Notes under the pieces: generated by a model
Told to the model about the DNA's origin: nothing
Databases searched by the model: none
Seen by the model: the letters and a program-made list of their open reading frames with translations, nothing else
Source of the DNA: a virus
DNA: 64,000 nt
Direction: 5' to 3' (one strand)
IMG/VR virus record: IMGVR_UViG_3300028392_000059
Span: 1-64,000 of that record
Shown: positions 1,748 to 43,811 of the stretch, in pieces
Position numbering within the stretch: the stretch's first letter is position 1
Layout of the letters: the number at the start of each line of letters is the position of its first letter
Made by a program: the position numbers and the translations under genes

Positions 1748-2068
1748 TTAACGATGTAAATGACCTGTTTGACCTTGGCCAGCACCATCGTATTCAGCTG
1801 GTGAATACGCCTTTGCGTCTGTTGTGTCGCCGAAAACATTTGTTGAGACAAAGTAGTCAAAGATACTCTGCTCATTGTTTTCTAAATTCACATTAAACAC
1901 ACGCAAGTCTTGAAATTTAGCACCTTCAAGCACAAGCTCGTTAATACGCTTTTCAAGCTCATTGCGATTGTTAAATGACACTGCAATAGCAGGCTCTGAA
2001 AAAGTAGCAGGCTTACAAATAAACATCATGTGGGTATCTCCTCTGAGGTATTCATATAAGATACCCAT
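1748..2068 (-). CDS. hypothetical protein
   Basis: ORF directly after the endolysin; start uncertain. Confidence 0.55.
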   Translation of the reverse strand: MGILYEYLRGDTHMMFICKPATFSEPAIAVSFNNRNELEKRINELVLEGAKFQDLRVFNVNLENNEQSIFDYFVSTNVFGDTTDAKAYSPAEYDGAGQGQTGHLHR

Positions 2069-2083
2069 ATTTGCGCGTTTATT

Positions 2084-24027: not shown

Positions 24028-25215
24028 TTACTGGTGGAAGATCGGCAGAATACCGAGCGACAGAGCAGACATAGCCTTACGCTGCCAAATGCCACGCACG
24101 TTGGCAATGTTAGCATCAACCATACCAGCGACTGTACGCTTAGTAGTACCATCCATAACCGACATATAGTCAGCATCCGACGGGAAAGCTTCTTCAGGAC
24201 CGGCCCAGCTATAACCAGCAGGAGCGACCACATAACCCCAACGATGCCACACTTCAGTGGTACCACCACCCTGATAAGCACCCGGATTACGGAAGATTTC
24301 AGTATCATCAGGGATAGCAAGCGATTCCATCGCAAGCGCACCCGGAAGCACGATAAACGATGTAAACGAGTTAGCCGTAATATCAACACCAGCACCAATA
24401 TTCAGCTTTGTGATTTCCGCAGAAGTCAAAGCAGTATTAGCACGCGTGTTAATCAGACGAAACTTGCCCTGGAAGATAGTCGAAAACTCGACATTACCAT
24501 CAACAACACGATCTTCATCAACAAGGTTAGCCGAACGCAGCGAAGCCATAATAGCCGGGCTGGTAACAAGGTAAGCATAATCGGGCTCATAGTCTTTATA
24601 AGCCATACCAAAGGCACGAATAAAGGCTTCAGCACGAGCAGCACCCTGCACAGCAGCAGTAGCAGCAATAACAGGAGCAGCACCAAGGTCAACATAGAAA
24701 CCATAACGACGATCAGTAGGATCATTGTAGAAGGTTTGACCACCAAGACCAGCAGAACCACTACCAGTAGCAGCACCGTTAAGCACTTCCGAAACGGCAA
24801 CACCCTTAAGCACAGACAGAATAGCGTTATGCTCATCTTGTGCATGCGTCTCACCAAAGTCACGACCAAGCTTAGCAAGACCATCAACCTGCGTCACAAC
24901 CTGCTGCAGATTAATCTTTTCATAACCATGCGTACGCACAGTCTTAATGTACTGCTGATAGTCAGAACCATAAGTGGTCTTGGTACCAGCGGTAGAGTCA
25001 GTAAGCGAGGCAACGTTAATGGTAGGGTTCAGCGGCTTAAACCAGCGCATCTGACCAATAAACGTTTCAGTAGCAGTATCAATCTGCGGGTTACCACTAA
25101 CAATAGCGGTAGACGACAGCTTCTTTGCATTAGTATAGGCTTCGTCGGAATACGCGCCAAGCGTCTCCTGAAGCACAAAGTTAGTAGCGCCAGCAGGCGA
25201 AACCGGAGTAGGCAT
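24028..25215 (-). CDS. major capsid protein
   Basis: 395 aa after the scaffold, before the adaptor; strongest codon bias in the window. Confidence 0.85.
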   Translation of the reverse strand: MPTPVSPAGATNFVLQETLGAYSDEAYTNAKKLSSTAIVSGNPQIDTATETFIGQMRWFKPLNPTINVASLTDSTAGTKTTYGSDYQQYIKTVRTHGYEKINLQQVVTQVDGLAKLGRDFGETHAQDEHNAILSVLKGVAVSEVLNGAATGSGSAGLGGQTFYNDPTDRRYGFYVDLGAAPVIAATAAVQGAARAEAFIRAFGMAYKDYEPDYAYLVTSPAIMASLRSANLVDEDRVVDGNVEFSTIFQGKFRLINTRANTALTSAEITKLNIGAGVDITANSFTSFIVLPGALAMESLAIPDDTEIFRNPGAYQGGGTTEVWHRWGYVVAPAGYSWAGPEEAFPSDADYMSVMDGTTKRTVAGMVDANIANVRGIWQRKAMSALSLGILPIFHQ

Positions 25216-25228: not shown

Positions 25229-25924
25229 TTAGGCACGCTTACGGAGATTTCCTTCCGCAGCAAGTTTCAGAACATCAGCCTGAGACATACCAAAGAGTGA
25301 CTTACCCTTTGTATCTGCAGGTGTTGTAGTTGTTGTAGTTGTTGATGTACCGCCACCAGACGAACGCTTAGCCTTAAGCAAGAATGAATTGTCATCGTGC
25401 TCTAAGAAAGACTTAACGAATGCTGCAATAGTAACACCGCTCCTATGAACCCATTCACCAGCATCATTCTTATGAAGTTCAGATGTAATGTCACGCTTTG
25501 CCATTTCAGCAGCTTTGGCATTTCTGAATTCGTATCCTGCAAGAACATTGCTAACGGCAATATCGCGCGTGTTCACTACATCACGCTCTTCAAGCTCACG
25601 AATCTTAGCTTCCATGTCGGCACGCTCACGTTCGAAAGCTTCTTGCAATTTACCTTCATCTTTAAGACGCTGAGTCTCACGATCACGATCAGCCTTTTCA
25701 CGTTCAGCAAGCTTCTTTGCGGCATCATCACGAGCAGCATAGGCAGCATCAAGCTTACGCTTCATATCTGCTTTAGCTTCGTCAATCGCCTTTTGAACTT
25801 CTGTACGCTTGTCTTCAGCTTCAACGGGAGTACCATCTTCGTTCTTTGTCGGATCGTAGTCAGGATTATCAATCATCTGACCTTCATTTTCAGGATCAGG
25901 GATTTGCTTAGGATTAACTAACAT
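25229..25924 (-). CDS. capsid scaffolding protein
   Basis: acidic N-terminus, coiled coil, FLLK...SGGG C-terminal pattern. Confidence 0.8.
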   Translation of the reverse strand: MLVNPKQIPDPENEGQMIDNPDYDPTKNEDGTPVEAEDKRTEVQKAIDEAKADMKRKLDAAYAARDDAAKKLAEREKADRDRETQRLKDEGKLQEAFERERADMEAKIRELEERDVVNTRDIAVSNVLAGYEFRNAKAAEMAKRDITSELHKNDAGEWVHRSGVTIAAFVKSFLEHDDNSFLLKAKRSSGGGTSTTTTTTTPADTKGKSLFGMSQADVLKLAAEGNLRKRA

Positions 25925-26035: not shown

Positions 26036-26051
26036 TTAATTTAACGGGGTC
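26036..26051 (-). promoter_or_regulatory. putative phage promoter (GACCCCGTTAAATTAA)
   Basis: exact copy of the motif, upstream of scaffold/capsid. Confidence 0.8.
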
Positions 26052-26055: not shown

Positions 26056-29000
26056 TTACCCGACGCCATACCATCCATGATTCTGCTCAAAATCATACGG
26101 AGCGTCTTCTAAGATATCCTCAACAGTCAATATGTCTTCTTTGGTAAGAATACGATCACCAACTTTTGATTTACCGGCGACAGGTATCAGTCCTTTATCA
26201 ATTGCTTCTTGCAAGTAAGCATCGTAACTTGCTTTTGGAAGACCTCTAGCAAGCATTTCATCTAGTGTCATTTTAACAACATTGTTAGTTAGCGTCTCGG
26301 CGTAAATACCACGAAGGGCTGTACGTCCAGGAAGCAAATCTGCAATGTTAGTAAAGAAAGCATCGTGAATAGTGCTCGTAGGAACATTATTACGTTTGCC
26401 CCATAAATGAAACTTCTTTACAATTACAGCGTCATTAGAGTGATTACCATTAACAGCAAATGCAGTACGTGCTTTAGTAGCATCTGCAATGTCGTTAATT
26501 TTACCTTCTTTGTTAAGAACCTCATCCCACCAGCTAGCAGTAGTCTTTTGAGGTACCATCAGAATATTAGTAGTCCAATTACCGTTTGCATCTTTGTAAA
26601 CAAGACGCTCTTCAAACGTCTGCGTGAAATTCTGCTCAATTACTTTACCATCAAAGTTTACCCAAGGAACATTTGTCCATGATTTAGGTAGATCATTCAT
26701 ACTTGTATAAGCAACAGACACTTCACTAGCCTTAGAAACATCTTTAAGTGTAGTGATACCAAGCTTGCTAGCTACATCACCAGCTACACCAAAATCTAAC
26801 TTCCAAAGCTTACGACCTACAGCACGGTCTTCAGGTATGTCAACACCAAGCAGCAAATCAGCAAGTCCGCTGTTAGGGTTCCATTTAGAAAATACCTTCT
26901 GCAATAGCTGTTCTGTAACAGGTGTATTTGCTGGTAAGCCAAGTACTTGTGATAACACTTTAGGCAGACGATAACCTTTACTGCGTTTACCACGAAGTGC
27001 AAGAGTTGCTACTGTCTTCCAACTGATATTAGCATTTGAAGGTTTAGCATTCGTAAGGTACTCTTGTGCCAACCTGCCAAAGAATTTTGTAAAGTCCTTA
27101 AGAATAGGAACCTGTTCAGCAAGATGATCACTCATGATATTAGCTATCTGTTTGAAGTCATCAGGTGTTACAATGCGTTCATACGACTGAGAAAGCTTTT
27201 CAACAATATCTTTTGTAGCAGGATCAAGAAACCAAAGTTGTTCCATTATCTGGTCGCCAGGGTCTTGTCCTTTGTTAAAGATATCTCTAACATCATCACG
27301 TAAAGAACGTAGCAGTTGTTCGCCCTCAGGGTCATATCGTGCTACACGTGCAATACGCGCATCAATTTCGTTGAGAACTTTTTGACGATCTGTAGCAGTA
27401 ACAACAAGTGTCCCTGAGTCTTTACCAAGCACTTTACCAAGCTTACCTTCTACGTTAAGAATACCAGTACGTTCACCAGCACCATAGAAAGTAACCATGT
27501 TTTGGGCTTTAGCAGCTTTCTGCAAGTCTTTAAGACCAAGTCCTAACTTTTCATTAATCTTTTTAAAGCGAGGATCATTATATGTTGATGCTGCAATTTC
27601 ATCGTATAGACGACGTTTTTGATTAGTCAACACAACATTAGAAAGGCCAGCTAATTGCTTATTACGCGTAGTAAGTGCAATAATCTGAGCGCCAGATGAA
27701 CTAGCGTCTTGTTCCATTGCAAGCGCAGTTTCAAACGTATCTAATGTGCCACCAGCAGCAAGATGACGATCTATTTTAGCTGTCTCAATTGCAAAACGAA
27801 AGAACTTACCTAACTCTTCACCATCAACACGCTGTACTGTAGGGTCTTCGAGAATAGCGCGTATATCAGCAGGCTTTGCACTGATCATACGTTCACCAAT
27901 TTCTCGAAGCTTAGGTCTCCAAGTAGCAGCAATCTTACGCCTACCCGTAAATGTAAGACTATCATATGGTCCTTCAAAGTGATCGCTAAGACCACCAAGA
28001 AAGGCACCAATCTGATCTGTCAAAGCGTCATTACCGTCATTACCGAGAATTTTAACTGCTTCTGTATTTAAGAAGGGCCTAAAACTCTCACCCGACTGCG
28101 GGCTTATAAGACCACGGTCATAAACGCGAGCACGATGGTCAATGAACGGATGATTGCTAAATGCAGCATCTTTCTCACGTAACCACTGCATAGATTTAAA
28201 GCGCTCGTAGGCGTCACCACGAGAACTAATGTAATGCTTGTACTCATTCAAATCATCATAAAAAGCTGCTTTACCGCGATCATCTTTGAAGTAAAGAAGC
28301 TTTTGGGTAAAGTCATAAAAGTCCGGATCAACCTTATACTTTGTTTTAGAAGCCCACGTTAGTGCATCAACGAGCTGCTTGTCAACAAACTTAACAGGGA
28401 AATCGCTATATGATGACGTAGAGGTAATTGGGATACGCGTATCATAAAGGCCGAGAACGCCCCTGTCGATGAAATACGTCTTGTAGCCTTCGCGGAATAG
28501 CAGACGATTTTTGTCATTTATAACTCCAACACGTAATCCAAGCTCAACTTGCCTTGTAAGCTTTGAATAGGCAGCAATACGAGGATCAATAACATTTACA
28601 TAATATGATACAGTGTCATAGTACGGACCGAAATATGCACCAGACAGGCGTGAACGCATTCTACGCTTTTGAACACCAAATGTATCAATCTCAAACAGAT
28701 GCCCAGCTTTCTTCTCAAGAATGTTAAGACCCGTTTGATACCATTGTTTGCGATTACCATTAAGATTTGCAAGATTATAAAGATCACGACCAAGTGATAC
28801 AGCAAGCGAGTCTCTATCAGGAGAATCAGCCATACCAAGCTTATGTGCAAATCTAAGGTAAAACTGCTGCATTTGTGAGTCGTCAATCCGACCACGTAAC
28901 CGTAAAGGGATTGTAGTGTCGAACACGCCTTTAAGTTCAGCAGCTATTTGAGGAGCTACTCTATCTTCCCATGCATTGCGTGCTACAATATTCTTAACAA

Positions 29001-30708
29001 AGTTTCTTTCAAGAGTGTCAAGCTGTGTACGACCAAGAACAGGATCAATGTAATCATCGTCTACCAGCTTTTTGAGAACATCTTGCCCTTTACGGATTTG
29101 AGTTTCAATAGCGTCAGAGACATTCATAACATCAAACTTAACTTGTGATTGCGCTACAGCTTTAAAGTTACCCCAAACTTCACGGTTATCTCGATAACGG
29201 CCGATTACAACACGAAGGTTATCAGCAATAACAGCACGCTCATTCATACTAAGCTTTAAAGAAACATCGTCAAGAACTTTATTAATGAAAGCTTTGTCAT
29301 CGTCTTTAAGGCTTACACTCTCATTTACACGACGAACAGCACCTTCAAAGACTTCAGCGTTAGGTTGATACAAACGAACGTCATCATACCTACCTGTAAG
29401 CGGATTGAAACGCAACTGCTCTTCAGTAGGAGGAGATTGGAGTACTCTACGCTTTGTAGCTTTCTTCGTATGCAAGAGTGTACCACGATAGTTTGTCAAT
29501 GATAACGTACCATCAAGCTCACCTGCTTGCAACAAATAATAGTCTACAAGAGTATTACGCATGTTATATAAATCTTCAGGCGTAGCAGCGCCAAGTTGCA
29601 TAGCATCTAGTTTAGCTTTTGCATCGGCAAATTTACGTGTATCACCAGGGATTGTATAGCTATCAGCAGTCAGCTGACGAAGCTCTTTGATACCAATTGT
29701 GTTACCGTTCGGATTGCTAAACTTGTCAACAGTCAGTTTGTTTGTATTCAAAAGATCAACTGACTTGTAATCACCAAGATGACGCAACTGTACATCCGAA
29801 GGTTGACGCTTAAGCCAATCATTATAGCTTTCTCTTAACGGTGTCTGACCGTCATAGTATGCTTGTTGCTTCGGCGTGAGGTTTGCAAGGTTTCTTTTTC
29901 TTACTTCCGCAGCACTTTCCAAAGAACCAATATCAGACCAAGACTTAAACACAGGTATAGTCGTAGAACGACAGTTCCAGTGAGCAGGCGGTAGGTGCTC
30001 CACATCACCAACGGGGTAAATAACGCCGTCCCTATGAGAGCACAGAGGAGTAGTCCTTGAATCGAGAACGGCCACATACTGCCACCCATTAAGGGCTTTC
30101 TCATTAGCTTTGTAAACTTCATGATCCGCCTGTGCATGTACTGATGTGATACTTGTAGTAACCAGCGACTGTGCTTGGAAACGTGTGATTTTGTGAACGT
30201 TACCACGACGTACATCAAGAGCAATATCAGTTGCTGTTTTACCTTCTGAGATACCTTTACGAATTACAGCTTCAATACGTTGCTTTTCAAGAACAGACAT
30301 ACCGGCCCAACTTTGTGACAATGTCTTATCATTATACAAAGGACGTTCAAGCACAACTTCTTCAGCAACACGACGAGTAGGTCTTTGTGTGCGCCAAATC
30401 TTACCCATTACAGATTCCATGTTTTGATAAGCAAATGATGCTTGATCAGCAAACAAATCTAGTAATGAACGACGGTGAGTAGATTGTAATTCGGTATATG
30501 TATCTACGAGTTCTTTATCAATTGCTTCTCGTAGTGTTTCAAGACCTTTGGCAGATGTATGAGCATCTTGAATGAGCTTGTCAAGTCTAACTGTATGGCC
30601 GTCAATAACTAACGAAACCTTACCTTGTACTCGACGCTCATAAAGACGAATCATCGCCGCTCTATCAACAGCCTTGTCGTAAAGTTGTGTGTTAGCATTA
30701 ACGGCCAC
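26056..30708 (-). CDS. MuF (SPP1 gp7-like) minor head protein fused to a T7-family single-subunit RNA polymerase
   Basis: N-terminal YVAVLDSRTTPLC...PPAHWNCRSTTIP (MuF); C-terminal DHRARVY..ISPQ, motif A QDASSSGAQ, motif B K-x7-YG, NHSNDA, motif C IHDAF. Confidence 0.92.
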   Translation of the reverse strand: MAVNANTQLYDKAVDRAAMIRLYERRVQGKVSLVIDGHTVRLDKLIQDAHTSAKGLETLREAIDKELVDTYTELQSTHRRSLLDLFADQASFAYQNMESVMGKIWRTQRPTRRVAEEVVLERPLYNDKTLSQSWAGMSVLEKQRIEAVIRKGISEGKTATDIALDVRRGNVHKITRFQAQSLVTTSITSVHAQADHEVYKANEKALNGWQYVAVLDSRTTPLCSHRDGVIYPVGDVEHLPPAHWNCRSTTIPVFKSWSDIGSLESAAEVRKRNLANLTPKQQAYYDGQTPLRESYNDWLKRQPSDVQLRHLGDYKSVDLLNTNKLTVDKFSNPNGNTIGIKELRQLTADSYTIPGDTRKFADAKAKLDAMQLGAATPEDLYNMRNTLVDYYLLQAGELDGTLSLTNYRGTLLHTKKATKRRVLQSPPTEEQLRFNPLTGRYDDVRLYQPNAEVFEGAVRRVNESVSLKDDDKAFINKVLDDVSLKLSMNERAVIADNLRVVIGRYRDNREVWGNFKAVAQSQVKFDVMNVSDAIETQIRKGQDVLKKLVDDDYIDPVLGRTQLDTLERNFVKNIVARNAWEDRVAPQIAAELKGVFDTTIPLRLRGRIDDSQMQQFYLRFAHKLGMADSPDRDSLAVSLGRDLYNLANLNGNRKQWYQTGLNILEKKAGHLFEIDTFGVQKRRMRSRLSGAYFGPYYDTVSYYVNVIDPRIAAYSKLTRQVELGLRVGVINDKNRLLFREGYKTYFIDRGVLGLYDTRIPITSTSSYSDFPVKFVDKQLVDALTWASKTKYKVDPDFYDFTQKLLYFKDDRGKAAFYDDLNEYKHYISSRGDAYERFKSMQWLREKDAAFSNHPFIDHRARVYDRGLISPQSGESFRPFLNTEAVKILGNDGNDALTDQIGAFLGGLSDHFEGPYDSLTFTGRRKIAATWRPKLREIGERMISAKPADIRAILEDPTVQRVDGEELGKFFRFAIETAKIDRHLAAGGTLDTFETALAMEQDASSSGAQIIALTTRNKQLAGLSNVVLTNQKRRLYDEIAASTYNDPRFKKINEKLGLGLKDLQKAAKAQNMVTFYGAGERTGILNVEGKLGKVLGKDSGTLVVTATDRQKVLNEIDARIARVARYDPEGEQLLRSLRDDVRDIFNKGQDPGDQIMEQLWFLDPATKDIVEKLSQSYERIVTPDDFKQIANIMSDHLAEQVPILKDFTKFFGRLAQEYLTNAKPSNANISWKTVATLALRGKRSKGYRLPKVLSQVLGLPANTPVTEQLLQKVFSKWNPNSGLADLLLGVDIPEDRAVGRKLWKLDFGVAGDVASKLGITTLKDVSKASEVSVAYTSMNDLPKSWTNVPWVNFDGKVIEQNFTQTFEERLVYKDANGNWTTNILMVPQKTTASWWDEVLNKEGKINDIADATKARTAFAVNGNHSNDAVIVKKFHLWGKRNNVPTSTIHDAFFTNIADLLPGRTALRGIYAETLTNNVVKMTLDEMLARGLPKASYDAYLQEAIDKGLIPVAGKSKVGDRILTKEDILTVEDILEDAPYDFEQNHGWYGVG

Positions 30709-32868: not shown

Positions 32869-33253
32869 TCTTTTTCTTTCTGACGCGTGTCACTTTAAGA
32901 CTAAGTGCGTCCATTGTAAACTCAACTAAATAATCAAGCAAATACGCATGTGCTTCTCTACCGGGCTCATACTCACCAACGTCTTCATGTATCATTTGTG
33001 TAACATGAAGGCATTCATGTGCAATCACAGAAGCAGCGTTATCAACCATATCAGGAGGAAAACGCATTACAATACACTGACCTTTAGGGCTATCAAAGTT
33101 CCATGTAGATGCGTAGCCCTGAGCCATGTCTGTTTGACGAGCATCTTTAAAGCCAACGGCTTCAAGGCCTGCATACATGGCCTCAGGGTTATCACATACA
33201 CCAACCATTGTATTATAGGGGACCGCTTGGATCCACCTAATTTTATCTAGCAT
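32843..33253 (-). CDS. HExxH zincin-like protein
   Basis: IAHECLH...EAHAYL. Confidence 0.6.
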   Translation of the reverse strand: MLDKIRWIQAVPYNTMVGVCDNPEAMYAGLEAVGFKDARQTDMAQGYASTWNFDSPKGQCIVMRFPPDMVDNAASVIAHECLHVTQMIHEDVGEYEPGREAHAYLLDYLVEFTMDALSLKVTRVRKKKNEVPETTS

Positions 33254-34902
33254 TATTGCTTACCTTTAAGCTTTGTATTCATTTGGTTAGCAAAATCAGA
33301 CTGTTTCTGATTAAATTGGTCTTTTGGTGTAATAATAGACTCATCTTTGCTAATTTCTATCTGTCCTTCATCATCATCATAATCGGGAGGTAACAGATCA
33401 TTTTGCTTAAGAATAAGAAGCCAGATAGTACGCGGAATAAGACCCTGTTGGTACCATTCAGTAGCTAAGCGAAGCCAATCTGCACCATGTGGCATAGGAT
33501 TGAAATCACTAGATAGCTCAAAATCAATATCAGCGGCCTTAAGCTCAATATCATAATACCAGTTAAGCATGAAGCAAATAACTTGCCGCATAGTATTACT
33601 GACTTTAAGATTTAGAGAACCAAGTTGAGCAGTTTGAGCAGCATTACGTATTTCAAGGGCTACACCTGATTGATCACCATGCTCAGGAGCAAGCATACGT
33701 ACACCAAGCTTTGCAATTTCTTCATAACCTGAAGCAATAGCCTTTTCCATGTCTTGAAGAGCGTCTGTAGGCGTCTTAAGAACATCAGCTTTGTCTTCAG
33801 GGTTAGGAAGCAAAATCCAAGAGCCTAGACCACCACTGACAATCTGGTCAAACTTTGCATCGTCCATAGATGAACAAATAACAGGTGTATAAGTAGCGGC
33901 ACCATACATAAGGTGATTACGACGAGAGATCTTATTGTAAAGCGCAATCTCTTTATCAATAATAGGAGTAAGTAGAGGAATCGTACCATCTACACTACCA
34001 TTCAAAGGCCACGCAGGAATAACCATAACAGGCTTATCATTAATGATAACAGGAATTGTGTCAATCAACTTAAACACAGGACGCTTAGCGTTGTTGACAA
34101 TTGTATGTCCACCCTGCACACCAACAGCTTCACGAGAGTCTTCAAGCTCAAATACACGAACTTGATATTTACCGTCAGGTGTTAGCTCATGTACCCACAC
34201 TGTTTCAACGTACTTAGGGTGAAACTCGTAGATATCATCATCGTATCGCTGTTGATACCCTTTTACAATGACGCGATCAAGAACAGTACGCCCATTAGGA
34301 TCAGTGCGTGTGCGAGTGTTGATAATGTTCTCAGCTCGATGAAGAACCGGATATGGTTTAATAGCTTTACGATCTTCAATTGACATTTCCTCATCAATGC
34401 GAGGATAATCTACAAAGATCCATGCTCGACTTGTTTGTACTTCTTCCCATAGTGCTGCGTCAAGAAAAGCAGACATTGCACTATCGTCCTTGCCGAACTC
34501 ATGCATAAGCCACTTTGCAGCATCTTTTTCAACATCATCAGGAAGCTTTAGTGTTGGCTGCTTACGAAGAAGGCCACCTACTAGCGTCTTGCTAAATTGT
34601 GCAGTAATACCAGGAAGTTCAGCTTCAGCCTTGTAAAAGTTATATTGTAACTGCGACATAGAAGGTGAGAAGGGAATGAGCAAGTTTGTAAAGTTAACAG
34701 TATCAATTATACTATCGAAGTCCTTCACAAACTGCTCACCATTACACACTGCGCGACTCTTAAGCCATACGTATACGAGTGAACGATACGCATCAGATGG
34801 ATCAGCTACAGTCTTTGTTTGATCAGCAGCCGAAGTCTGAACGACAGATGACTTAACAGAAAATCCAGCTGACTTTAACGAATTGAAAGTAGCCTCATCC
34901 AT
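33253..34902 (-). CDS. portal protein (DUF4055-like)
   Basis: 549 aa; Y..Y...AE, LVGGLLRKQP, AWIFVDYP, LGVRML, SGVAL.I. Confidence 0.88.
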   Translation of the reverse strand: MDEATFNSLKSAGFSVKSSVVQTSAADQTKTVADPSDAYRSLVYVWLKSRAVCNGEQFVKDFDSIIDTVNFTNLLIPFSPSMSQLQYNFYKAEAELPGITAQFSKTLVGGLLRKQPTLKLPDDVEKDAAKWLMHEFGKDDSAMSAFLDAALWEEVQTSRAWIFVDYPRIDEEMSIEDRKAIKPYPVLHRAENIINTRTRTDPNGRTVLDRVIVKGYQQRYDDDIYEFHPKYVETVWVHELTPDGKYQVRVFELEDSREAVGVQGGHTIVNNAKRPVFKLIDTIPVIINDKPVMVIPAWPLNGSVDGTIPLLTPIIDKEIALYNKISRRNHLMYGAATYTPVICSSMDDAKFDQIVSGGLGSWILLPNPEDKADVLKTPTDALQDMEKAIASGYEEIAKLGVRMLAPEHGDQSGVALEIRNAAQTAQLGSLNLKVSNTMRQVICFMLNWYYDIELKAADIDFELSSDFNPMPHGADWLRLATEWYQQGLIPRTIWLLILKQNDLLPPDYDDDEGQIEISKDESIITPKDQFNQKQSDFANQMNTKLKGKQ

Positions 34903-34905: not shown

Positions 34906-35085
34906 TTAGGCCTTCATTGCAGCATTGAACTCTTCGAGAGTTCCAATAAAGTTTTCACCAGACGTATGGTTGACAGCCACCAATGTGACACCATCTTCAT
35001 TGTCCATAGTGAGATTCCAGTTGCAAGGAACACGATCCTCGAACTTGGTAACGGGAGCGACAGTAATGTCCATTTCTACGGCCAT
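34906..35085 (-). CDS. hypothetical protein (59 aa, not in track)
   Basis: RBS AAAGGACTAAGAA identical to the scaffold gene RBS; MAVEMDITVAP...AAMKA*. Confidence 0.7.
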   Translation of the reverse strand: MAVEMDITVAPVTKFEDRVPCNWNLTMDNEDGVTLVAVNHTSGENFIGTLEEFNAAMKA

Positions 35086-35624
35086 GGTTTTCTTAGTCCT
35101 TTAATGATTACTGAATCAGCTCTTGAACCTTTGTATAGAGCTGTTCTTGTGAGACTGCCCTTATAAGCAGTTACGGTTGTGCCAGAGAATGTCCAGCCGG
35201 TATTATTGCCACCATCAGTAGAATTAGCAGCAAACCATGTACTTGCAGGTGTTGCGTTAATATTGCTGATTGTGTCATAATTTACAGTTACAGTTCCAGT
35301 CCCTGAGTAATTTAATGTAGCATCGGTAGCATTGATAGAACGTGTTAAACTTGCGTTATTTAAACTAAAGTTTTTAACGTTCATCGCAGTAGAGCTAAAA
35401 CCATATTGAGACTTAAAGCCAAAACTAACAGTAACGCTAGAAAGTCCTGTAGTGATATTACCTAATGTTAAACCTTCATAAAGAATTTCAGTAGGTGCGT
35501 TGCTGGCAATTTCTAAAGTGACACCACTCCAGTCGCCTTGCTCAGGACCACCTATCCATAGAGTATTGCTGGCAGAGCCTGATAGTTTTAATGTGCCAGT
35601 ACCAGAAGCAGCAAGTTGTCCCAT
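35076..35624 (-). CDS. C-terminal partner of the beta-helical fibre-like protein
   Basis: own GGAGG RBS, TAATG coupling; ends NSTDGGNNTGWTF. Confidence 0.7.
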   Translation of the reverse strand: MGQLAASGTGTLKLSGSASNTLWIGGPEQGDWSGVTLEIASNAPTEILYEGLTLGNITTGLSSVTVSFGFKSQYGFSSTAMNVKNFSLNNASLTRSINATDATLNYSGTGTVTVNYDTISNINATPASTWFAANSTDGGNNTGWTFSGTTVTAYKGSLTRTALYKGSRADSVIIKGLRKPWP

Positions 35625-38572
35625 TAGTCGCCTCCACTACTAGAATAGTAGTTTGGATCACCGCCATTTTGAAAATTGCCGCTTGTAATTTCTAACGTAC
35701 CGCTATTAAAAAAGATGTTAGTAACAAATGTGTAAGTATAAGAAATTGTGTTACACTTAAGATAAAACCCATTTAAATTAAGATGAGACACAAATGACAG
35801 TATACCGCTAGTAGTAAGATCACTAGATAGAAGAATAGTAGTACCTACAGCGTAACCTACTGTAATATTACCAAAAACCTTGCCAGAGGGAATGGTAAGA
35901 GTAGCACCAGTTAAAATTAATGTTAAACCACCAACATTACAATTGTTACCAAATATTGCAAAGCCTGTGCTCACAACTTGAAGCGTACCTGCGATAACAC
36001 CATTATAATTTGTAGAATCAAATCCCGCAACAAACTGGAAGCTATTGCTTATACTTACAGTATCCGAGCCACTATCTAAATAAAAATATAATGGATTACT
36101 TCCAGGAATAATCGTACGAGTGCCAGTTGTTGGGTTACCAGATAAGTAGATTCCTCCACTATATTGATTACCATTTCCTGAGTAAACTGTAGTATTCGTA
36201 CCTGTCAGAATGTGTTTGCTATATGCAGCACTACAGTCAAGAATACCTGAATTACTTAAAGTGGCAGAGGTAAATGTATAACCCGCATAAACAATAGTAG
36301 CACCAGCATTAACAGTAACAGTACCACTTATACTACGGTTAGCTGGTAATGTAGTTGTTGATCCAGTGTTTGCAACTAAATTTGTAATAGTTATCTGTGA
36401 ACTTGCGGGTAAAGTAAAACTTACATACCCACCAATATTCATAGTAGTTGTAGTTATTTTGTAGCTATTATATACAAAAGTTACAACAGAAGATGCTGCC
36501 AGTGTCAACGATGTTAACGTAATATTACTAGATAATGTAAAAGTAATAGTACCATTTAATGTAAGATCACTATACGTTAATGTATAAGAGCCATATGAAA
36601 TGGTAGCACCAGCAAACAGGCTTAGCGAGTAAAATGACATATCATTTGGTAATGTAAATGCTACATTTGCTGCTAATGTTAAAGAGTTAGAAGGATTTAG
36701 TACAGTATAACCACCTGTATAGAAGGTAAGGCTCACTGTATTGTTAATCTTCAAATCAGTACAAACAAGAATATTTGCAAAATAGGTACTATTATTTATA
36801 ACAGCTGTATAAACGACTACAGGATTAACACTATAGTTTATGTTACCGCCGCTAAATGTTAGAGTATTAAATGTTGTAGTTCTAGAATTAGTGTTAAGGA
36901 ATAATGTACCGCCCGTAAGTACACATTGATCAATAGTAACTGCTGACGGCGGTGAGAACGTAATTGAACTTGTAAAAGTAACAACGCCAGTCCCTACAAC
37001 AAACCCGGCAAAAGCACTACCAAATGTGATATTACTGAGTGTAAAGCTACCATTTAAATAGCCACTAAATACGCTCAAATCTAACGAACCAATAAAAGGC
37101 CCATAAATAATGGCACTACCGTTTCCACTAGCTTTAACATTAATGGCAATACTAGAAGTATACGTTCTAGCTGCAGAACCGGCACCATTACAGTTAAACA
37201 CAAAACCAGAGGGGATTGTACCACCAGTTACACTAATAACAGTGCCACTAGCACCAGTTAACGTAATACCACCGCTAGTCGCAGATATAGTGCCACCGGT
37301 CATATTAAGCGATGGTGATGTTATTGTAATTGAGCTTATATTAAACGTACCAGCACTAATAGTCAACGAGGCAAGTGTACGTGCAGTATCTGCAATAGTA
37401 GTTATACCCGATTTGCTTAAATTAAGCCCCAGCGAATACAAAATAAAAGGCAGCGTATTATTTGCCTGCGGTGACCATACAAGTGCACTTGTTGTTGTAG
37501 AACTAATAAAAGAAGGTAAGGCTGCAGTAGCAAGAGTACCAGTCATTTTACCAGAACCAGACACAACACCGTCTATACTTACACCAATGAAATTAGCAAG
37601 ATTGACAGTATCAGCAAGCGTGTTAATATACAGTACAACATCACCAGTCGTAACATTCACTGTTCGAGTACCTGTGGTACCAGTCGATGAAAACGTAACA
37701 CTCAAGTTACCGCTAGGGCGTGTACCGCCTGTAACAGTCAATGTAGCTGTACCACTACCACCTGAACACGTAACAGTATTAGAGCCCATTGTAAGGACAC
37801 CACCTGTTTGTGAAAAAGTGTTACAAGTTAAATTACCATTAAATGTAATATTACCCGACACAATACTAATAGGAGCAGTTGTTGTGATACCACCAGAAAA
37901 TGTAACAGTATTACCTCCACCAGCGTCTACAGTAACACTACATGTTAATGACGCCGTAGGTACAGTAATAGAACAAGCGGTAGATACGAGTATAGCTGAT
38001 GACGTTGCAGTACCAGCAATTTTACTGCTAACCGTCGTTACAATACTTAAACCACCCGCTTGTAGCGTAAGTATATCTGCTGAGCCTAGTGTAAGTGTTA
38101 CAGGTCGTTTAGTACCCGTATTGTCTGTTGTATCAACGATACTCAAACCATAGATAGTACGAGACACTGTAGTGTTCATTGCAACAGATTGTGCTAACGA
38201 AGCGTTTGTAGTTACATAACACATATCACCTGTAGTAGGTGCAGAAGCAGCAGTAGCTTCAACAGCTAAAATAGGTTGCGATGTAAAGGCAGCTGTACTT
38301 GCAGTTAATGTATACGTACCTGTACCATCCGAATTTGCAGCTGTATTGGATGAGATAATACCACAAGCAACCATTGCTGTAGCAGTGTTATACCGATACA
38401 GACGATAGCCATTAGGTAGTTTACCGTTACCATCACCAGCGGTTACAGTTAATGATGTACCTGTAGTATTGATTTGAGCAGTCACGCGGCGAGGACCATT
38501 AGCAAACCAGTTTGTAGTACTTGAAATAGAAGCAGATGTATTAGCAAGCATGAACAGATATCTATCAGCCAT
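35624..38572 (-). CDS. Thr/Ser/Gly-rich beta-helical fibre/adhesin-like structural protein
   Basis: 982 aa, very few charged residues, repeated xLTxxGGT beta-solenoid pattern. Confidence 0.7.
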   Translation of the reverse strand: MADRYLFMLANTSASISSTTNWFANGPRRVTAQINTTGTSLTVTAGDGNGKLPNGYRLYRYNTATAMVACGIISSNTAANSDGTGTYTLTASTAAFTSQPILAVEATAASAPTTGDMCYVTTNASLAQSVAMNTTVSRTIYGLSIVDTTDNTGTKRPVTLTLGSADILTLQAGGLSIVTTVSSKIAGTATSSAILVSTACSITVPTASLTCSVTVDAGGGNTVTFSGGITTTAPISIVSGNITFNGNLTCNTFSQTGGVLTMGSNTVTCSGGSGTATLTVTGGTRPSGNLSVTFSSTGTTGTRTVNVTTGDVVLYINTLADTVNLANFIGVSIDGVVSGSGKMTGTLATAALPSFISSTTTSALVWSPQANNTLPFILYSLGLNLSKSGITTIADTARTLASLTISAGTFNISSITITSPSLNMTGGTISATSGGITLTGASGTVISVTGGTIPSGFVFNCNGAGSAARTYTSSIAINVKASGNGSAIIYGPFIGSLDLSVFSGYLNGSFTLSNITFGSAFAGFVVGTGVVTFTSSITFSPPSAVTIDQCVLTGGTLFLNTNSRTTTFNTLTFSGGNINYSVNPVVVYTAVINNSTYFANILVCTDLKINNTVSLTFYTGGYTVLNPSNSLTLAANVAFTLPNDMSFYSLSLFAGATISYGSYTLTYSDLTLNGTITFTLSSNITLTSLTLAASSVVTFVYNSYKITTTTMNIGGYVSFTLPASSQITITNLVANTGSTTTLPANRSISGTVTVNAGATIVYAGYTFTSATLSNSGILDCSAAYSKHILTGTNTTVYSGNGNQYSGGIYLSGNPTTGTRTIIPGSNPLYFYLDSGSDTVSISNSFQFVAGFDSTNYNGVIAGTLQVVSTGFAIFGNNCNVGGLTLILTGATLTIPSGKVFGNITVGYAVGTTILLSSDLTTSGILSFVSHLNLNGFYLKCNTISYTYTFVTNIFFNSGTLEITSGNFQNGGDPNYYSSSGGD

Positions 38573-38576
38573 CTTA

Positions 38577-38960
38577 CTATCCCATCAGTGTATAAAGAAT
38601 GGACCCTGTAGCAGGTGCTGTACCAAAGTTGTTAACAATGATAGCATTAGCTGACGAAGGATACCAATCACAATAGATAGGGTAACCCGTTGTAGAGTCT
38701 CTAAAAGCCATAAGTAAGCTAGTAGTATTTAAATTATGAGTAATTGTAAATGTTACAGCACTACCATTACCTATGCTACCAGATAAGATCGATACAGCCC
38801 TAGATGGAATCCATTTAGTGCCATCCCATTGAATACGATCACCAGTAGCAGGTGTGCCTGTAACCTCAATTTTGTCAGTATTTAAATTACTAAAATTACT
38901 ATCGACTTCAGTATTCGTCAACGGAGAGCCTTTAGTAGCTCTACTGACAATTGTAGACAT
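38577..38960 (-). CDS. fibre-like virion protein
   Basis: RATKGSPLTNTEVDSNF.NL, I.WDGTKW.P, ITHNLNT. Confidence 0.65.
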   Translation of the reverse strand: MSTIVSRATKGSPLTNTEVDSNFSNLNTDKIEVTGTPATGDRIQWDGTKWIPSRAVSILSGSIGNGSAVTFTITHNLNTTSLLMAFRDSTTGYPIYCDWYPSSANAIIVNNFGTAPATGSILYTLMG

Positions 38961-39409
38961 TACTGTGCTGTAACTTTCCAAGTAACAGTCAGCGAGTCAC
39001 TAGCGCCCTTATTTTGCACAGAGAACACAGTACGATTAAGCATAGTGCCTGCGCTAGAGGCATTAAAGATACCAGCTTCAGTAATAGCACCAGTAGCCGT
39101 ACCTGCAGGAAATGTAGCTACATACTGAACACTATCATTTGCTACGTTTGTAGTAACAATTGTTGTGCTTGTAAGAGCAACACGAGCAAGTTCTGTAACA
39201 AGTGCAGATTGAGTTGCACCTGCAGCAGTGGCACTTGTACCAACAGCCATATGTGACATTGCAGTAGCTGTGGCATCTTTCATACGACTGGCAATATACG
39301 CAAAGCCACCATTAACAATCAAATTGTTGTAATTGTATTCATCCACGCTGCCATCTTCACGTTCGAAGCGCAACGTAAGCTCACCCTTAAGTTCAAGGTT
39401 GTCAAGCAT
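38960..39409 (-). CDS. putative virion structural protein (fibre base/adaptor-like)
   Basis: NLIVNGG, MAVGT, ITEAGIFNA...GTML.R, L.VTWKVT. Confidence 0.7.
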   Translation of the reverse strand: MLDNLELKGELTLRFEREDGSVDEYNYNNLIVNGGFAYIASRMKDATATAMSHMAVGTSATAAGATQSALVTELARVALTSTTIVTTNVANDSVQYVATFPAGTATGAITEAGIFNASSAGTMLNRTVFSVQNKGASDSLTVTWKVTAQ

Positions 39410-39411
39410 TA

Positions 39412-40203
39412 TTAGGGTATCCTTAATATTGTGCCTACGTAATCGCTCTCAAAGTAAGAAGCAGACGTATAGGATTGATTTATCAAAACAAGCGTTTCAC
39501 TTGCTGTTGTTGTTTCGTTTATAGCTTTACCAAATGTAAGCGTAACACCATCACTCATACTAGTAGATTCTTGCGTACTAGTAGAAAGCGCCGTACCTGC
39601 ACTCACAAGGTTATTGCTAACGATTTCGCTAATGTTTGTATAATCAATGAGAACCATTGACTTGTCAAACACAATGGTATCTGATATGGTAGATGCATCT
39701 GTTTTTGTAGAAGCAGTGTTTATTGACACAACTTCTGTAGATGTAACATAATCAGTAATGCTTTTAGCAGTATCAAATGTCAAATAATCATTTGTACCTA
39801 CAGTGTCATTAATGATTTTTGAAACATCAAACACAACAAGCTCATTGTTTGAAAACACATCAGTATAAACTTTGCTTGCACTAAATGTAATAATTTCAAC
39901 AGGGTCAACAATATCTACAGTACCGCTAGGATTAGACAGTTCAGGAAACCGCTGACTGGCATTATCAATGTCAATATTAAAAGTGTTAGTGTTAGTGTTT
40001 GTATCGACTTGATAACCTTTTATAGTAACACTAACAGCTTTTGATTGAGCATCAGCAACGACAGGCTTTGTTTTAAAATCAGGTAAAACATTAACCTTGT
40101 CAGCCTTAGTAGCGACTACGGGTGTGGTTACAGCAACAGCTAAAGTAGGCGAGGCTACAGTTGAAGCTAATTGCTTGTTGCCTATTGTTACCTGATTAGC
40201 CAT
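39412..40203 (-). CDS. Thr/Ser/Asp/Val-rich repeat structural protein
   Basis: about 19-aa K...D....S(D/E) repeats; YF..DYVG C-terminus. Confidence 0.65.
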   Translation of the reverse strand: MANQVTIGNKQLASTVASPTLAVAVTTPVVATKADKVNVLPDFKTKPVVADAQSKAVSVTIKGYQVDTNTNTNTFNIDIDNASQRFPELSNPSGTVDIVDPVEIITFSASKVYTDVFSNNELVVFDVSKIINDTVGTNDYLTFDTAKSITDYVTSTEVVSINTASTKTDASTISDTIVFDKSMVLIDYTNISEIVSNNLVSAGTALSTSTQESTSMSDGVTLTFGKAINETTTASETLVLINQSYTSASYFESDYVGTILRIP

Positions 40204-40205
40204 GT

Positions 40206-40790
40206 TTACACCACGTCAGTAGGACTGAATTGAATTTCAATCATACCCCTAAGCGGCTTCCATGTTTTGACAATAATAGAGTTAGTAGGTTCAGTGACAC
40301 GAAGTTCAAAGAAGCCATACACATGCGACATTACTGTAGGAGCAACACCCCAAGTATTACCTAGTGTAGACGGGAATTGCACATACACATAGTTAAGCTG
40401 TGTCTCTTGCCAGTATGGATCAACATCAGGCGTAGTAGCACTGACACGATTAACACCAGTAAGGAGCTTGTAATACTTGCTATTGTACAAAACAACATTC
40501 TCAATGCTGTAAGATGTAGCAGCCGCCCAATTACCACGTAGCGTAGGCACACGAACAGTAAGTGTAGTCTGTACACCACTAGGCTTTACTGTAGAAGGCT
40601 TATCGGACTGTGCAGCAACATTATCTGCCTCAATCACAACAGCTTCATAGGTGTACCCAGCAGTGGCATCAGTAAGAAAGTTCAAAAGAATAGGGTACTC
40701 TAGTTGCTCGCCTTTGACGAACGACCATAAAACAGAACCACTATCAGAGATAAGGTCTGTCTTGATGTCATTAAGTTTACTGCGTGCCAT
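40206..40790 (-). CDS. structural protein with CBM5/12-like insert
   Basis: WAAATSYSIENVVLYNSKYYK...TPD..PYW. Confidence 0.65.
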   Translation of the reverse strand: MARSKLNDIKTDLISDSGSVLWSFVKGEQLEYPILLNFLTDATAGYTYEAVVIEADNVAAQSDKPSTVKPSGVQTTLTVRVPTLRGNWAAATSYSIENVVLYNSKYYKLLTGVNRVSATTPDVDPYWQETQLNYVYVQFPSTLGNTWGVAPTVMSHVYGFFELRVTEPTNSIIVKTWKPLRGMIEIQFSPTDVV

Positions 40791-40974
40791 GTGTTTGTTC
40801 CATCACAGTTAAAAGGCATGGACCATCAAGATTGACAATCGTGCCATTTTCTAGATGGACAGGATAAGTCCAAGATCGATCGTCGGTAAGTAGATGAACA
40901 CCAGATTTGATATCATCAACACAAAGACGACCATACGCTGTATCACGATATTCGGGAAACAAAGAAAGTTGCAT
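40777..40974 (-). CDS. hypothetical protein
   Basis: 65-aa ORF filling the gap. Confidence 0.5.
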   Translation of the reverse strand: MQLSLFPEYRDTAYGRLCVDDIKSGVHLLTDDRSWTYPVHLENGTIVNLDGPCLLTVMEQTHGTQ

Positions 40975-40976
40975 AA

Positions 40977-41306
40977 TTACACCTTATCTTGCTTCTTATC
41001 CAACTTAGCGTAAATTGAATCAAGCTTAGTCAGCAAAGGTACCAATGCCTCCTTTAGCTCATTTTTGGTTACGTATTGCTGTGCTAGAAGCAGTTCTAAA
41101 TTGCCAATACGATCTAAGCGTTCAAGTATCTCATGACGAGTCCTGTCGCTTTCTATGTTGGTACGGTACTCAGACACAAGCTTAAGCTCTAGGCTGTTAA
41201 TCCTATTATGGTCTCTTTGCTGCTGTCCCCAGACGGTATTAACCCACCAAGTAACACCAGCAAGAATAATAGCTAACATCCCAGAGAAAATGGTTTGATT
41301 GTCCAT
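40977..41306 (-). CDS. single-TM coiled-coil protein
   Basis: N-terminal TM, then a duplicated LEL.L...Y motif, ends KLDKKQDK. Confidence 0.65.
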   Translation of the reverse strand: MDNQTIFSGMLAIILAGVTWWVNTVWGQQQRDHNRINSLELKLVSEYRTNIESDRTRHEILERLDRIGNLELLLAQQYVTKNELKEALVPLLTKLDSIYAKLDKKQDKV

Positions 41307-42631
41307 CAAAAATTAAATCCTCTAGAAGAAGCTCGCTTAGCCGACCTAATAGGAAATCGGTATTCTGTAGCGTAACGAACACCATCAGAGAAGTGCTCAA
41401 CACCCTCCTTCTTATCGATGGTAGCAGTATTAGAATTATTGTCCACCCACTTTGTACGCTCCATAGAAGATATGAGATTTGTACATTTAGGATCAAAGAA
41501 CATAGACATTTCACCAGCAGCTGTCATTAGCTGAGCATTGACTGCATTAACAGAGTCAATCATACCTGGTGCTTTATTATGTGCTAAGCAGACAATACCT
41601 TGTGATTCTAAGATAGTAAAATCGGATCGACCAACAGGTGCAGAAGACTGACGTCTACGACCAGTAGGATCGGGATAAGCAAATATTTTATTAGTAGGGT
41701 ACCTACCCCGAAGAGCAATAGCAAGCTGTTCTGTATCAGGATGACCCATGAGCTCATCAAGGTAATGTGTTTGTTTACCTCGTATAGCAAATACTGAAGA
41801 AGCTTGGATACCCACGTTAAAGTCGATACCAACATGTACATCTTCTTTCTCGCTGAATGGCTCAAGTGTACGCACATGTTTTTTACGATCAAAACAATAA
41901 AACACACTATTACCAGAGTCTTTGAACTGAGCAAGATACTCAGAGGCAAATGAACGAGGATCAATAGTGTGTCGTAACGATTCAATTTCTACAGGATCTA
42001 GGAAAGGCGACCCTGTATAGTCGTAATGGTAAGATCCCCAAGCAGGATCCTTCTCGCTGTAGTGATGGATTTCATGGAAGAAATCGTAGCCATTAGGTGT
42101 TGACGCGATAAGAGCGCGACCTGGAGAGCGAGCACCATATCGTAAAGCATTTTGTGGGCTCCAACGTGTTGATATGCATGGACGGATAACAGACTCCCAA
42201 GCTTTCTTAGGAGCAATACCACGTGTACATGATGTGATTTCGTCCCAGCCTACAAAGTAATAACCTTTACCACGCATACGCTCAACAGCCTCATAAGACA
42301 ACAAACGAAGCTCTACATTATTTGGTAGAACAAAACGTCCTTGGTCTTGTGAACTCTTAATTGCATACTGCTCAAGGCCCATATCGTAGGCAAGGACAGG
42401 ATAGTAGATATCAGTCACCTGATCATACGTAGGAGCAATAATAGCAACACGTTTGTTAGGGACATCGGCTGGTAATGCCATAAGTTCGAAAGCAGCAGTT
42501 GTTGCAGCTGTAGCAAGGAAGTAGGATTTACCCCAACCACGAGCACAGCAAACAGATATAAACCGATGCTTCATGTCAATAAACATGTCTTCAAAGGCTT
42601 CTGTTTGACCTTCGTGTAAATATACGCTCAT
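41306..42631 (-). CDS. terL: terminase large subunit
   Basis: LHEGQ, Walker A ARGWGKS, Walker B VGWDE, ASTP, GIDFN, HFSDGVRY. Confidence 0.95.
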   Translation of the reverse strand: MSVYLHEGQTEAFEDMFIDMKHRFISVCCARGWGKSYFLATAATTAAFELMALPADVPNKRVAIIAPTYDQVTDIYYPVLAYDMGLEQYAIKSSQDQGRFVLPNNVELRLLSYEAVERMRGKGYYFVGWDEITSCTRGIAPKKAWESVIRPCISTRWSPQNALRYGARSPGRALIASTPNGYDFFHEIHHYSEKDPAWGSYHYDYTGSPFLDPVEIESLRHTIDPRSFASEYLAQFKDSGNSVFYCFDRKKHVRTLEPFSEKEDVHVGIDFNVGIQASSVFAIRGKQTHYLDELMGHPDTEQLAIALRGRYPTNKIFAYPDPTGRRRQSSAPVGRSDFTILESQGIVCLAHNKAPGMIDSVNAVNAQLMTAAGEMSMFFDPKCTNLISSMERTKWVDNNSNTATIDKKEGVEHFSDGVRYATEYRFPIRSAKRASSRGFNF

Positions 42632-42960: not shown

Positions 42961-43381
42961 CATCATCTTCCTTATCGCCAGTGTGATAAACAACACCTTT
43001 TTGAGTTGTATGGACAACAAAAGCAGGAAGTACTTTCTCTTCAACAACATTATGTTCAGGCACACGGCCATAGCCATAACGAAGGAGATTGTTAGCAATC
43101 CGCTCTTTCTTGTCTAATAGATTGTTAAGTAGATCAGATCGCCATGTTAATGGTTTCTGTGTAGAAGCACTATACACAACGATCTTCCCATCGCGAATGT
43201 CGTATTCACGCTGAATGAGCTGTTCTATCTCACGATACGTCTTAACAAGTTCGCCAATGGGATCATAATTTAACACACGAAGACGATCTTTAGACCTTTC
43301 GCTACCACCATGATAGCGCATAGCCTTTGTACCGTTACCGTATGCTCCTGGTTGTTCAATAACAATGTCTGCAGCTGACAT
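42953..43381 (-). CDS. putative terminase small subunit
   Basis: first late gene; L..L.YDPI..L...Y and LLRYGY pattern; close upstream of terL. Confidence 0.6.
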   Translation of the reverse strand: MSAADIVIEQPGAYGNGTKAMRYHGGSERSKDRLRVLNYDPIGELVKTYREIEQLIQREYDIRDGKIVVYSASTQKPLTWRSDLLNNLLDKKERIANNLLRYGYGRVPEHNVVEEKVLPAFVVHTTQKGVVYHTGDKEDDDG

Positions 43382-43446
43382 GGGACTCGTTTCTCAGTTC
43401 GACGATGGAGGAAAAATCAACTAACAACTAAACTCGACAGAGTTCA

Positions 43447-43462
43447 TTAAGTTAACGGTGTC
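43447..43462 (-). promoter_or_regulatory. putative phage promoter (GACACCGTTAACTTAA)
   Basis: 14/16 match to the motif, followed by TGA as at 43658 and 3089. Confidence 0.65.
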
Positions 43463-43485
43463 GACCAACAATTATGCACATATTT

Positions 43486-43568
43486 CTTTGTACCTTGCAG
43501 TGTACAGTTTGAGAATAACATGAATTTATCCACGTTTGTACCACTTATGGCCTTAGACTTTGTACCTT
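43486..43568. repeat. three direct repeats of TTTGTACC
   Basis: CTTTGTACCTT at 43486 and 43558, TTTGTACC at 43535. Confidence 0.6.
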
Positions 43569-43806: not shown

Positions 43807-43811
43807 TTTTG

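Follow-up and report, generated by a model that had tools for sequence, protein, structure and literature searches.

Positions 1 to 64,000 of the uncultured virus record IMGVR_UViG_3300028392_000059 form the window described here; the record has 75,364 bp in all and is rated complete. The window encodes a protein, here called MuF-RNAP, in which a head-morphogenesis module of the MuF/SPP1 gp7 type is fused to a T7-type single-subunit RNA polymerase (RNAP). By analogy with phage N4 and with known MuF cargo proteins, we consider it probable that this polymerase is packaged in the capsid and starts an N4-like polymerase relay at infection, the N-terminal MuF module serving as its capsid-loading tag. 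No description of a MuF-RNAP fusion was found in the literature, the Naomviridae papers included. Positions given below refer to the window unless they are marked as genome positions, and the features are collected in Table 1.

Results

Architecture and predicted fold of MuF-RNAP

The MuF-RNAP gene is a single intact frame of 1550 amino acids (aa), as the initial annotation had read it, and both of its domains are present; it has a GTG start codon 7 nt after an AAAGGA ribosome-binding site, and its N terminus agrees with those of the homologues. An AlphaFold model of aa 351 to 1550 was built on an alignment of 30 relatives, yielding a mean predicted local distance difference test (pLDDT) value of 82.6 and a predicted template modeling score of 0.78. 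The model matches T7 RNAP (8dh5_E) with a Z score of 30.7 and a root mean square deviation of 3.4 Å over 530 residues (VIA-align), with model residues 216 to 1200 superposed on T7 residues 38 to 883; with the same model, the mitochondrial RNAPs reach a Z score of about 28 and the N4 mini-vRNAP (the core of the N4 virion RNAP, or vRNAP) one of 19.5. Foldseek aligned the polymerase model with T7 RNAP at an E value of 1.9e-18. A search of the PDB with the single protein sequence gave no match, whereas the family profile retrieved T7 RNAP (E value of 4.2e-25; hhalign probability of 99%), as did the fold search. The identity between the fused polymerase and T7 RNAP is about 16 to 18%.

Domain profiles agree with the model. 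Pfam RNA_pol (PF00940) matches aa 1397 to 1488 with 25.7 bits against a cut-off of 22 (28.6 bits summed over the pieces in frame), and the PHROGs “RNA polymerase” family matches aa 834 to 1081 with an E value of 3e-18; membership in the T7-like RNAP superfamily is thus supported both by the Pfam score and by the right-hand fold of the predicted model. A family A DNA polymerase was considered for the C-terminal module and excluded, as the top structural and profile matches are all RNAPs and RNAP-specific motifs are present. Compared with T7 RNAP and with the family consensus (hhalign), the module carries a clade-specific insertion of about 125 aa, which is shared by MuF-RNAP and EBPR siphovirus 1 and is partly disordered (pLDDT values below 50 at model residues 938 to 992).

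The MuF module is assigned to PHROG 241 (“head morphogenesis”) with an E value of 3e-62, and its Pfam match, which is above the cut-off, is the sole MuF match in the 75-kb genome. The MuF signature consists of D216-x-R-T-x3-C223 and P241-x-H-x-N-C-R-S248; it had been recognized in the initial annotation, with the first part spaced as D.RT..C instead of D.RT...C. An AlphaFold2 model of aa 1 to 600 has a pLDDT value of 85 and a dip in confidence at aa 350 to 358. When compared with the PDB (Foldseek, VIA-wide), this model retrieved generic helical bundles only and no solved MuF structure. The alignments with N4 mini-vRNAP extend back to about aa 426, and the roughly 550 aa that had at first been described as unrecognized sequence are mostly the polymerase N-terminal domain, from about aa 561, together with a helical domain (aa 359 to 560). 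AlphaFold models and profiles together divide the protein into a MuF module followed by a near-full-length T7-type RNAP.

Conservation of the catalytic residues

Conservation was judged on the alignment of 30 family members, which extends down to 20% identity. All of the RNAP motifs that had been listed from the sequence are found at the expected kind of place, and their residues were verified. The two catalytic aspartates, the motif B lysine and Tyr-Gly pair, the T/DxxGR motif, and the ribose-sensing histidine (H784 in T7) are present; K1064, K1067, Y1075, and G1076, as well as D1426 and D1449, are invariant in the 30 sequences, and H1423 is nearly invariant.

The arginine located four residues before the motif B lysine (T7 R627) is absent, and the glutamine that had been noted in its place was verified as Q1063. 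It had been taken as a worry for activity; however, this position is Gln in three close sequences, Arg in the next (sister) clade, and variable elsewhere, so that Gln is a clade-specific state, and the adjoining K1064 does not vary in the alignment. This shifted basic residue may be what the family uses near the R627 position. Because the protein agrees with the superfamily in its Pfam score, its fold, and its metal-binding residues, we regard Q1063 as a lineage trait and not as a reason for exclusion.

The stretch of about 100 aa after motif C, also pointed out earlier, measures 101 aa (71 aa in T7) and is not anomalous, since it aligns to the last residues of T7 RNAP. The extreme C terminus is conserved as aromatic-Tyr-Gly-x-Gly at the last residue and is aligned with the end of T7 RNAP, whose free C terminus (FAFA) is functionally important; a conserved C-terminal end aligned to this free end fits the location of MuF at the N-terminal end of the fusion. 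Taken from the sequence, the polymerase is complete and apparently active, with strongly conserved catalytic residues.

Distribution of the fusion

The fusion is the rule across deep divergence. At least 513 protein clusters were found by a word-indexed search, nearly all of them 1540 to 1560 aa long with both Pfam domains; where the clusters are named at all, the name is “SPP1 gp7 family head morphogenesis protein.” An exhaustive HMMER search gave 148 matches among 50%-identity representatives, the full-length ones matching in their C-terminal half, and MuF stands at the start of all eight distant or longer full-length members that were scanned (1264 to 2073 aa); in two of these (1264 and 1307 aa), the polymerase half is near canonical. 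In 80 viral contigs, frames cut by a contig end being excluded, all of the 60 complete frames have 1537 to 1578 aa. As no complete frame among the 60 has lost the fusion, which also persists in clades at 20% identity, physical linkage to MuF itself appears to be selected.

In a set of 50,697 phage records, the fusion occurs in EBPR siphovirus 1 and in the roseophages DSS3_VP1 and DSS3_PM1 (Naomviridae) and in no others. The two roseophages are cultured, and their gene is annotated merely as “head morphogenesis.” A link between the fusion and the uracil DNA of the Naomviridae was considered and excluded, as neither dCMP-deaminase nor YfbR-like genes occur in the genome described here. In EBPR siphovirus 1, the two halves have been deposited separately, as gp47 (“head protein”) and gp49 (“hypothetical”). 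This is not a natural split of MuF and RNAP: the break lies inside the polymerase and is a group I intron with an HNH gene, the intron scoring 40.5 bits in Rfam (E value of 1.6e-8), below the gathering score.

Sequencing runs that contain the window are freshwater metagenomes, and no RNA data set is listed among them. A megablast search against the phage records gave no match. The collection of bacterial and archaeal genomes yielded two phage contigs in one metagenome-assembled genome of the Gammaproteobacteria, with no prophage context and no reliable host.

A second, stand-alone RNA polymerase

The genome encodes a further, canonical T7-like RNAP, which stands alone and is located 6.8 kb beyond the end of the window. 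Its identity to T7 RNAP is 27% (E value of 9e-51), whereas its match to the fused enzyme has an E value of only 0.01; the two polymerases being recent duplicates is excluded on this ground. Both RNAP genes occur together in all of the 11 near-complete relatives and also in DSS3_VP1. In some relatives (G001, G006, and G011), the stand-alone gene is found as two frames (514 and 257 aa) or is larger (926 or 1013 aa), which suggests introns or inteins there too.

Two promoter-like motif classes

Two unrelated motifs with promoter-like positions were found. The class M/L motif, GA-A/C-CCCGTTAAATTAA (GACCCCGTTAAATTAA type), is located on the coding strand in intergenic gaps and heads middle and late modules; in the window there are 4 matches against 0.11 expected. 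The site following the fusion gene is succeeded by a CCCA-n4-TGGG mini-hairpin, and the motif is conserved at a syntenic site in six relatives. A 713-bp noncoding gap before the packaging operon contains a strong hairpin terminator carrying 12 T residues in a row and, after it, two tandem class M/L copies with a common extended upstream similarity.

The class E motif, GCG-n-AAATAT-n-GGTATCTTATATG, has exactly two copies in the genome, and both of them head the run of small genes that ends in the stand-alone RNAP gene. In this genome and in 9 of the 11 relatives, the coding strand carries the exact 12-mer 1 to 4.5 kb ahead of that gene, and a control with the reversed pattern gave one match in 12 genomes. 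The core of 12 to 14 nt is exact among phages whose proteins are only 60 to 70% identical. As read from the sequence, it has no good –10 hexamer at the standard spacing; a TTG-like element is located 8 nt upstream in some relatives. Sigma-70-like sites were not enriched in the early region (11 against 15.6 expected) in a scan with one consensus. No clean motif emerged when DSS3_VP1 was searched quickly by k-mers for promoter classes, and the two-motif result is so far limited to the freshwater clade.

The presence of two motifs and two polymerases suggests one promoter class for each enzyme. Since the fused enzyme would be present at time zero, class E is most simply assigned to it, an assignment that we infer from the positions of the motifs.

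Genome and gene setting

All of the credible genes of the genome lie on the minus strand. A 167-codon open frame spans the junction of the two ends of the record (window position 1 and genome position 75364), and the map is therefore taken as circular. The layout is T7-like, with unidirectional genes in which small early genes are followed by an RNAP gene and then by T7-like replication genes, and a profile scan of the genome showed no integrase above the cut-off.

The initial annotation had located the fusion gene in the MuF slot between portal and scaffold. It does lie between the two, within the head module, as is typical of the MuF family; however, it does not adjoin the portal gene, as three open reading frames intervene, encoding in order a 136-aa product, a 582-aa homologue of the phage T5 A1 protein, and a 91-aa product. 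The head genes are followed by tail genes, including those of a 3288-aa tape measure protein, with TMP_3 as the sole domain shown, and of a 1881-aa fiber protein. The very long tail that had been supposed agrees with this tape measure, from whose length the tail is estimated at roughly half a micrometer (0.5 μm).

The A1-like protein has 23 to 25% identity to A1 proteins of T5-like phages over more than 80% of its length (tblastn). In T5-like phages, A1 is a pre-early protein, and its gene is located in the first-step-transfer region; with its gene in a late head operon, the homologue may perhaps be packaged as well. In DSS3_VP1, this position is without a gene. The 982-aa protein encoded between terminase and portal has no PHROG or Pfam match, and large unassigned genes are unusual there. 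A by-eye reading of one intergenic gap gave a pair of tRNA-like elements side by side. Conserved stem-loops of the form GGGAG-A/G-TCATTAATTTGG-T/C-CTCCC occupy intergenic gaps of the early and middle region, with two copies differing by a compensatory stem change; they may be terminators, processing sites, or another signal.

TABLE 1 Location of the MuF-RNAP gene, its modules and motifs, and other features discussed in the text
Feature	Position	Strand	Remarks
MuF-RNAP gene	26056..30708	-	1550 aa, about 175 kDa; stop codon 26056-26058
MuF/SPP1 gp7 head-morphogenesis module	29674..30708	-	aa 1-345; long helical hairpin and MuF core
Phage_Mu_F core (PF04233)	29956..30282	-	aa 143-251; E value 1.8e-13, 51.7 bits against cut-off of 29.6
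Low-confidence linker and extra helical domain	29029..29673	-	linker aa 346-358, helical domain aa 359-560; between MuF and T7-like core
T7-type single-subunit RNAP module	26059..29028	-	aa 561-1550; N-terminal domain, thumb, palm, fingers, C-terminal foot
D857-H-R859-A-R861-V-Y863	28120..28140	-	T7 D421-W-R-G-R-V-Y427; R861 invariant in 30
Motif A catalytic Asp D1001	27706..27708	-	T7 D537; invariant in 30
Motif B/O-helix	27481..27522	-	Q1063 (T7 R627 position), K1064, K1067 (T7 K631), Y1075-G1076 (T7 Y639-G640)
Clade-specific insertion, ~125 aa	26674..27045	-	aa 1222-1345; just before specificity-loop β-hairpins (aa 1346-1386)
H1423-S-N-D1426 and motif C H1448-D1449	26362..26442	-	T7 H784...D787 and T7 H811-D812
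Large terminase	41306-42631	-	in late packaging and head operon
Block without assigned genes, 6 kb	34906-41306	-	terminase to portal; includes 982-aa protein
982-aa protein	35624-38572	-	
Portal protein	33253..34902	-	PF13264/PHROG 145; presumed docking partner of MuF module
Phage T5 A1 “DNA transfer protein” homologue, 582 aa	30963..32711	-	PHROG 1745, E value 4.7e-66
Scaffold	25229-25924	-	directly downstream of MuF-RNAP gene
Major head protein	24028-25215	-	after scaffold
Stand-alone T7-like RNAP, 746 aa	genome 70771-73011	-	Pfam E value 3e-64
Class M/L sites	genome 70110; window 57553, 43658, 43447 (weaker), 26036, 3089	coding	
Class M/L site after fusion gene	26036..26049	-	7 nt after fusion-gene stop, upstream of scaffold and capsid genes
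Class E copy 1	2053..2076	-	directly after CHAP endolysin gene, head of small early genes
Class E copy 2	genome 74339-74362		outside window
Noncoding gap, 713 bp	43099-43811		before packaging operon
tRNA-like pair	54998-55179	-	intergenic gap
Conserved stem-loops	window about 56832-56874, 61236-61708 (hairpin near 61440), 46927-46977; genome 69464-69517		
Group I intron with HNH endonuclease gene	EBPR siphovirus 1 (JF412302), locus 11179-11405		just after motif B

Discussion

Proposed polymerase relay

SPP1 gp7 interacts strongly with the portal, and this interaction targets one to a few copies of gp7 to the interior of the procapsid (PMC6316719, PMC5576092), a behavior known for SPP1 gp7 only (PMC6316719); MuF proteins bear C-terminal cargo, so far toxins, that is thought to be delivered at infection (PMC6316719, PMC5576092). 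By the same route, the MuF module would dock the 175-kDa MuF-RNAP on the portal during prohead assembly. At infection, the protein would exit through the tail, either together with the leading DNA end or shortly before it, then refold and initiate at the class E (GGTATCTTATATG type) promoters, which head the stand-alone RNAP gene and the small early genes; the stand-alone RNAP would then read the class M/L (CCCGTTAAATTAA type) promoters before the replication, packaging, capsid, and lysis modules. Since all genes point one way, transcription could also assist the uptake of the genome, as it does in T7 and N4. Delivery of an RNAP by MuF had been proposed in the initial annotation: the intact fusion, the complete and conserved polymerase, the sole MuF match, and the deep conservation agree with it, and the delivery steps are what we infer. 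The second RNAP, the conserved pair of RNAP genes, and the two motif classes with relay-like positions strengthen the proposal.

Several points weigh against such a relay. Searches of the literature gave no virion proteomics, transcription data, or biochemistry for any member of the family, and ejection of MuF/gp7 is undemonstrated even in SPP1. A protein of 175 kDa would have to pass unfolded through a tail whose length is set by the 3288-aa tape measure. The map is circular, and entry of the early genes first is an assumption. T7 R627 is not kept at the aligned position, where Q1063 stands. Class E could, moreover, be a promoter for the host polymerase, as are A1 to A3 in T7.

The main alternative is a T7-style programme in which host RNAP transcribes the early genes, that of the stand-alone RNAP included, from class E and the fused RNAP is packaged for some other post-entry role, such as priming replication (T7 RNAP and mitochondrial RNAP prime replication at origins), pulling DNA in, or transcribing a few sites that were not recognized. 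The T7-like unidirectional layout, in which small early genes precede the RNAP gene and the replication genes, is in keeping with it, as are the TTG-like element upstream of class E in some relatives and the conserved hairpins in the early and middle region. However, we consider it unlikely: the class E core is exact across phages at 60 to 70% protein identity and has no good –10 hexamer, the sigma-70 scan showed no enrichment, and, if the host enzyme sufficed, a second, highly derived RNAP with a full specificity-loop region in every relative would be hard to explain.

Less likely still is an arrangement without delivery, in which the RNAP half acts late in the producing cell, possibly after cleavage, while MuF performs ordinary head assembly and the fusion couples their expression. 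The gene is indeed located in the late operon, and the low-confidence linker (aa 346 to 358) would offer a possible cleavage site. In contrast, the single promoter class of the middle and late modules is already explained by the stand-alone RNAP, a late-only polymerase cannot account for class E before the early genes, all 60 complete frames as well as clades at 20% identity retain the fusion, and known MuF cargoes are all thought to be capsid targeted (PMC6316719, PMC5576092). It is very improbable that the module retains only the fold, as a DNA-binding pilot or end-protecting protein on the portal. In favor of this reading, Gln replaces T7 R627, the Pfam RNA_pol match is weak (25.7 bits), and the most distant clade has Tyr or Phe for the motif C His and a drifted DxRGR. 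Against it, none of the 30 sequences departs from the two metal-binding Asp residues, the O-helix Lys, Tyr-Gly, or D1426, the variable Arg position adjoins a Lys that never changes, the sister clade has Arg, and the EBPR siphovirus 1 intron is located right after motif B, a typical target in functionally constrained sequence.

Significance

Virion RNAPs start the phage programme without the host enzyme; the lineages from which they are known are few, and the device for delivery differs from one to the next. With a T7-type enzyme tagged by MuF, a new route of delivery would be added, and this in long-tailed phages of ordinary appearance that abound in lakes and in the sea. The chances appear about even that MuF-docked T7-type RNAPs, widespread in freshwater and marine siphophages, solve the problem of virion-delivered transcription independently, as the third such case besides the N4/jumbo-phage enzymes and the tape-measure fusion of P23-45. 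In this solution, the enzyme would ride on the portal beside the last-packaged DNA end and use its own class E promoters, making the relay fully independent of host RNAP and perhaps powering genome entry. If this is true, MuF would be a general capsid-loading tag for large enzymes, beyond toxins, and the travel of a 175-kDa enzyme down a very long tail becomes a physical question. The polymerase and the two candidate promoters are also of practical interest as compact, possibly orthogonal transcription systems. The idea lends itself to a direct test, as this gene is also found in DSS3_VP1 and DSS3_PM1, which are roseophages in culture.

Comparison with known systems

A close known parallel is N4 gp50 (Schitoviridae), likewise a T7-superfamily RNAP carried in the capsid (as would be the case here) for the first transcription and followed by a second, phage-encoded T7-like RNAP. 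In both N4 and P23-45, the virion RNAP transcribes the gene of the second RNAP (PMC5512222, PMC10770324). However, gp50 is a protein of about 3500 aa from a podovirus, with its own injection and encapsidation regions, a zincin-like domain (PMC5512222), and no MuF, whereas MuF-RNAP has 1550 aa and an N-terminal MuF module and belongs to a long-tailed phage. The giant polyprotein with flanking regions is not found here, as only MuF and RNA_pol domains were detected, and the core is not nearest to N4 mini-vRNAP (Z score of 19.5, against 30.7 for T7 and 28 for the mitochondrial enzymes). In N4, DNA hairpins serve as promoters; the candidate sites described here instead look like T7-type duplex promoters. 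N4-like vRNAPs have been stated to occur only in N4-like phages (Iyer et al. 2017).

Thermus phage P23-45 resembles the present virus as a siphovirus with an extremely long tail whose virion RNAP, gp96, is fused to a structural protein (PMC10770324); gp96 transcribes the pre-early genes, including that of the nonvirion RNAP gp64, with one promoter motif for each polymerase (PMC10770324). Unlike MuF-RNAP, the P23-45 enzymes are two-barrel RNAPs akin to those of cells, and they are carried by the tape measure in the tail. Here the fold is the T7 right hand and the carrier is a portal-associated head protein; no double-psi β-barrel core fused to the tape measure was found, the tape measure showing TMP_3 only.

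MuF polymorphic toxins and SPP1 gp7 (PF04233) share with MuF-RNAP the N-terminal MuF, a gene by the portal, and C-terminal cargo. In the polymorphic toxins, however, the cargo is a toxin with an immunity gene and the phages are temperate, whereas here it is an RNAP of about 1000 aa on the only MuF of the phage, with scaffold downstream and no integrase above the cut-off. The word “polymerase” was not found in Jamet et al. 2017.

T7 RNAP (gene 1) is the best structural match, and the likeness extends to T/DxxGR, motifs A, B, and C, the H784 equivalent, the specificity-loop region, and the extreme C terminus. It differs as a free early protein that is never packaged, whereas MuF-RNAP has an extra helical domain and the 125-aa insertion and does not have Arg627 in place. 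Since both virion RNAPs and the delivery of cargo by MuF have precedents, we regard the fusion as a variant of known themes and not as a new category.

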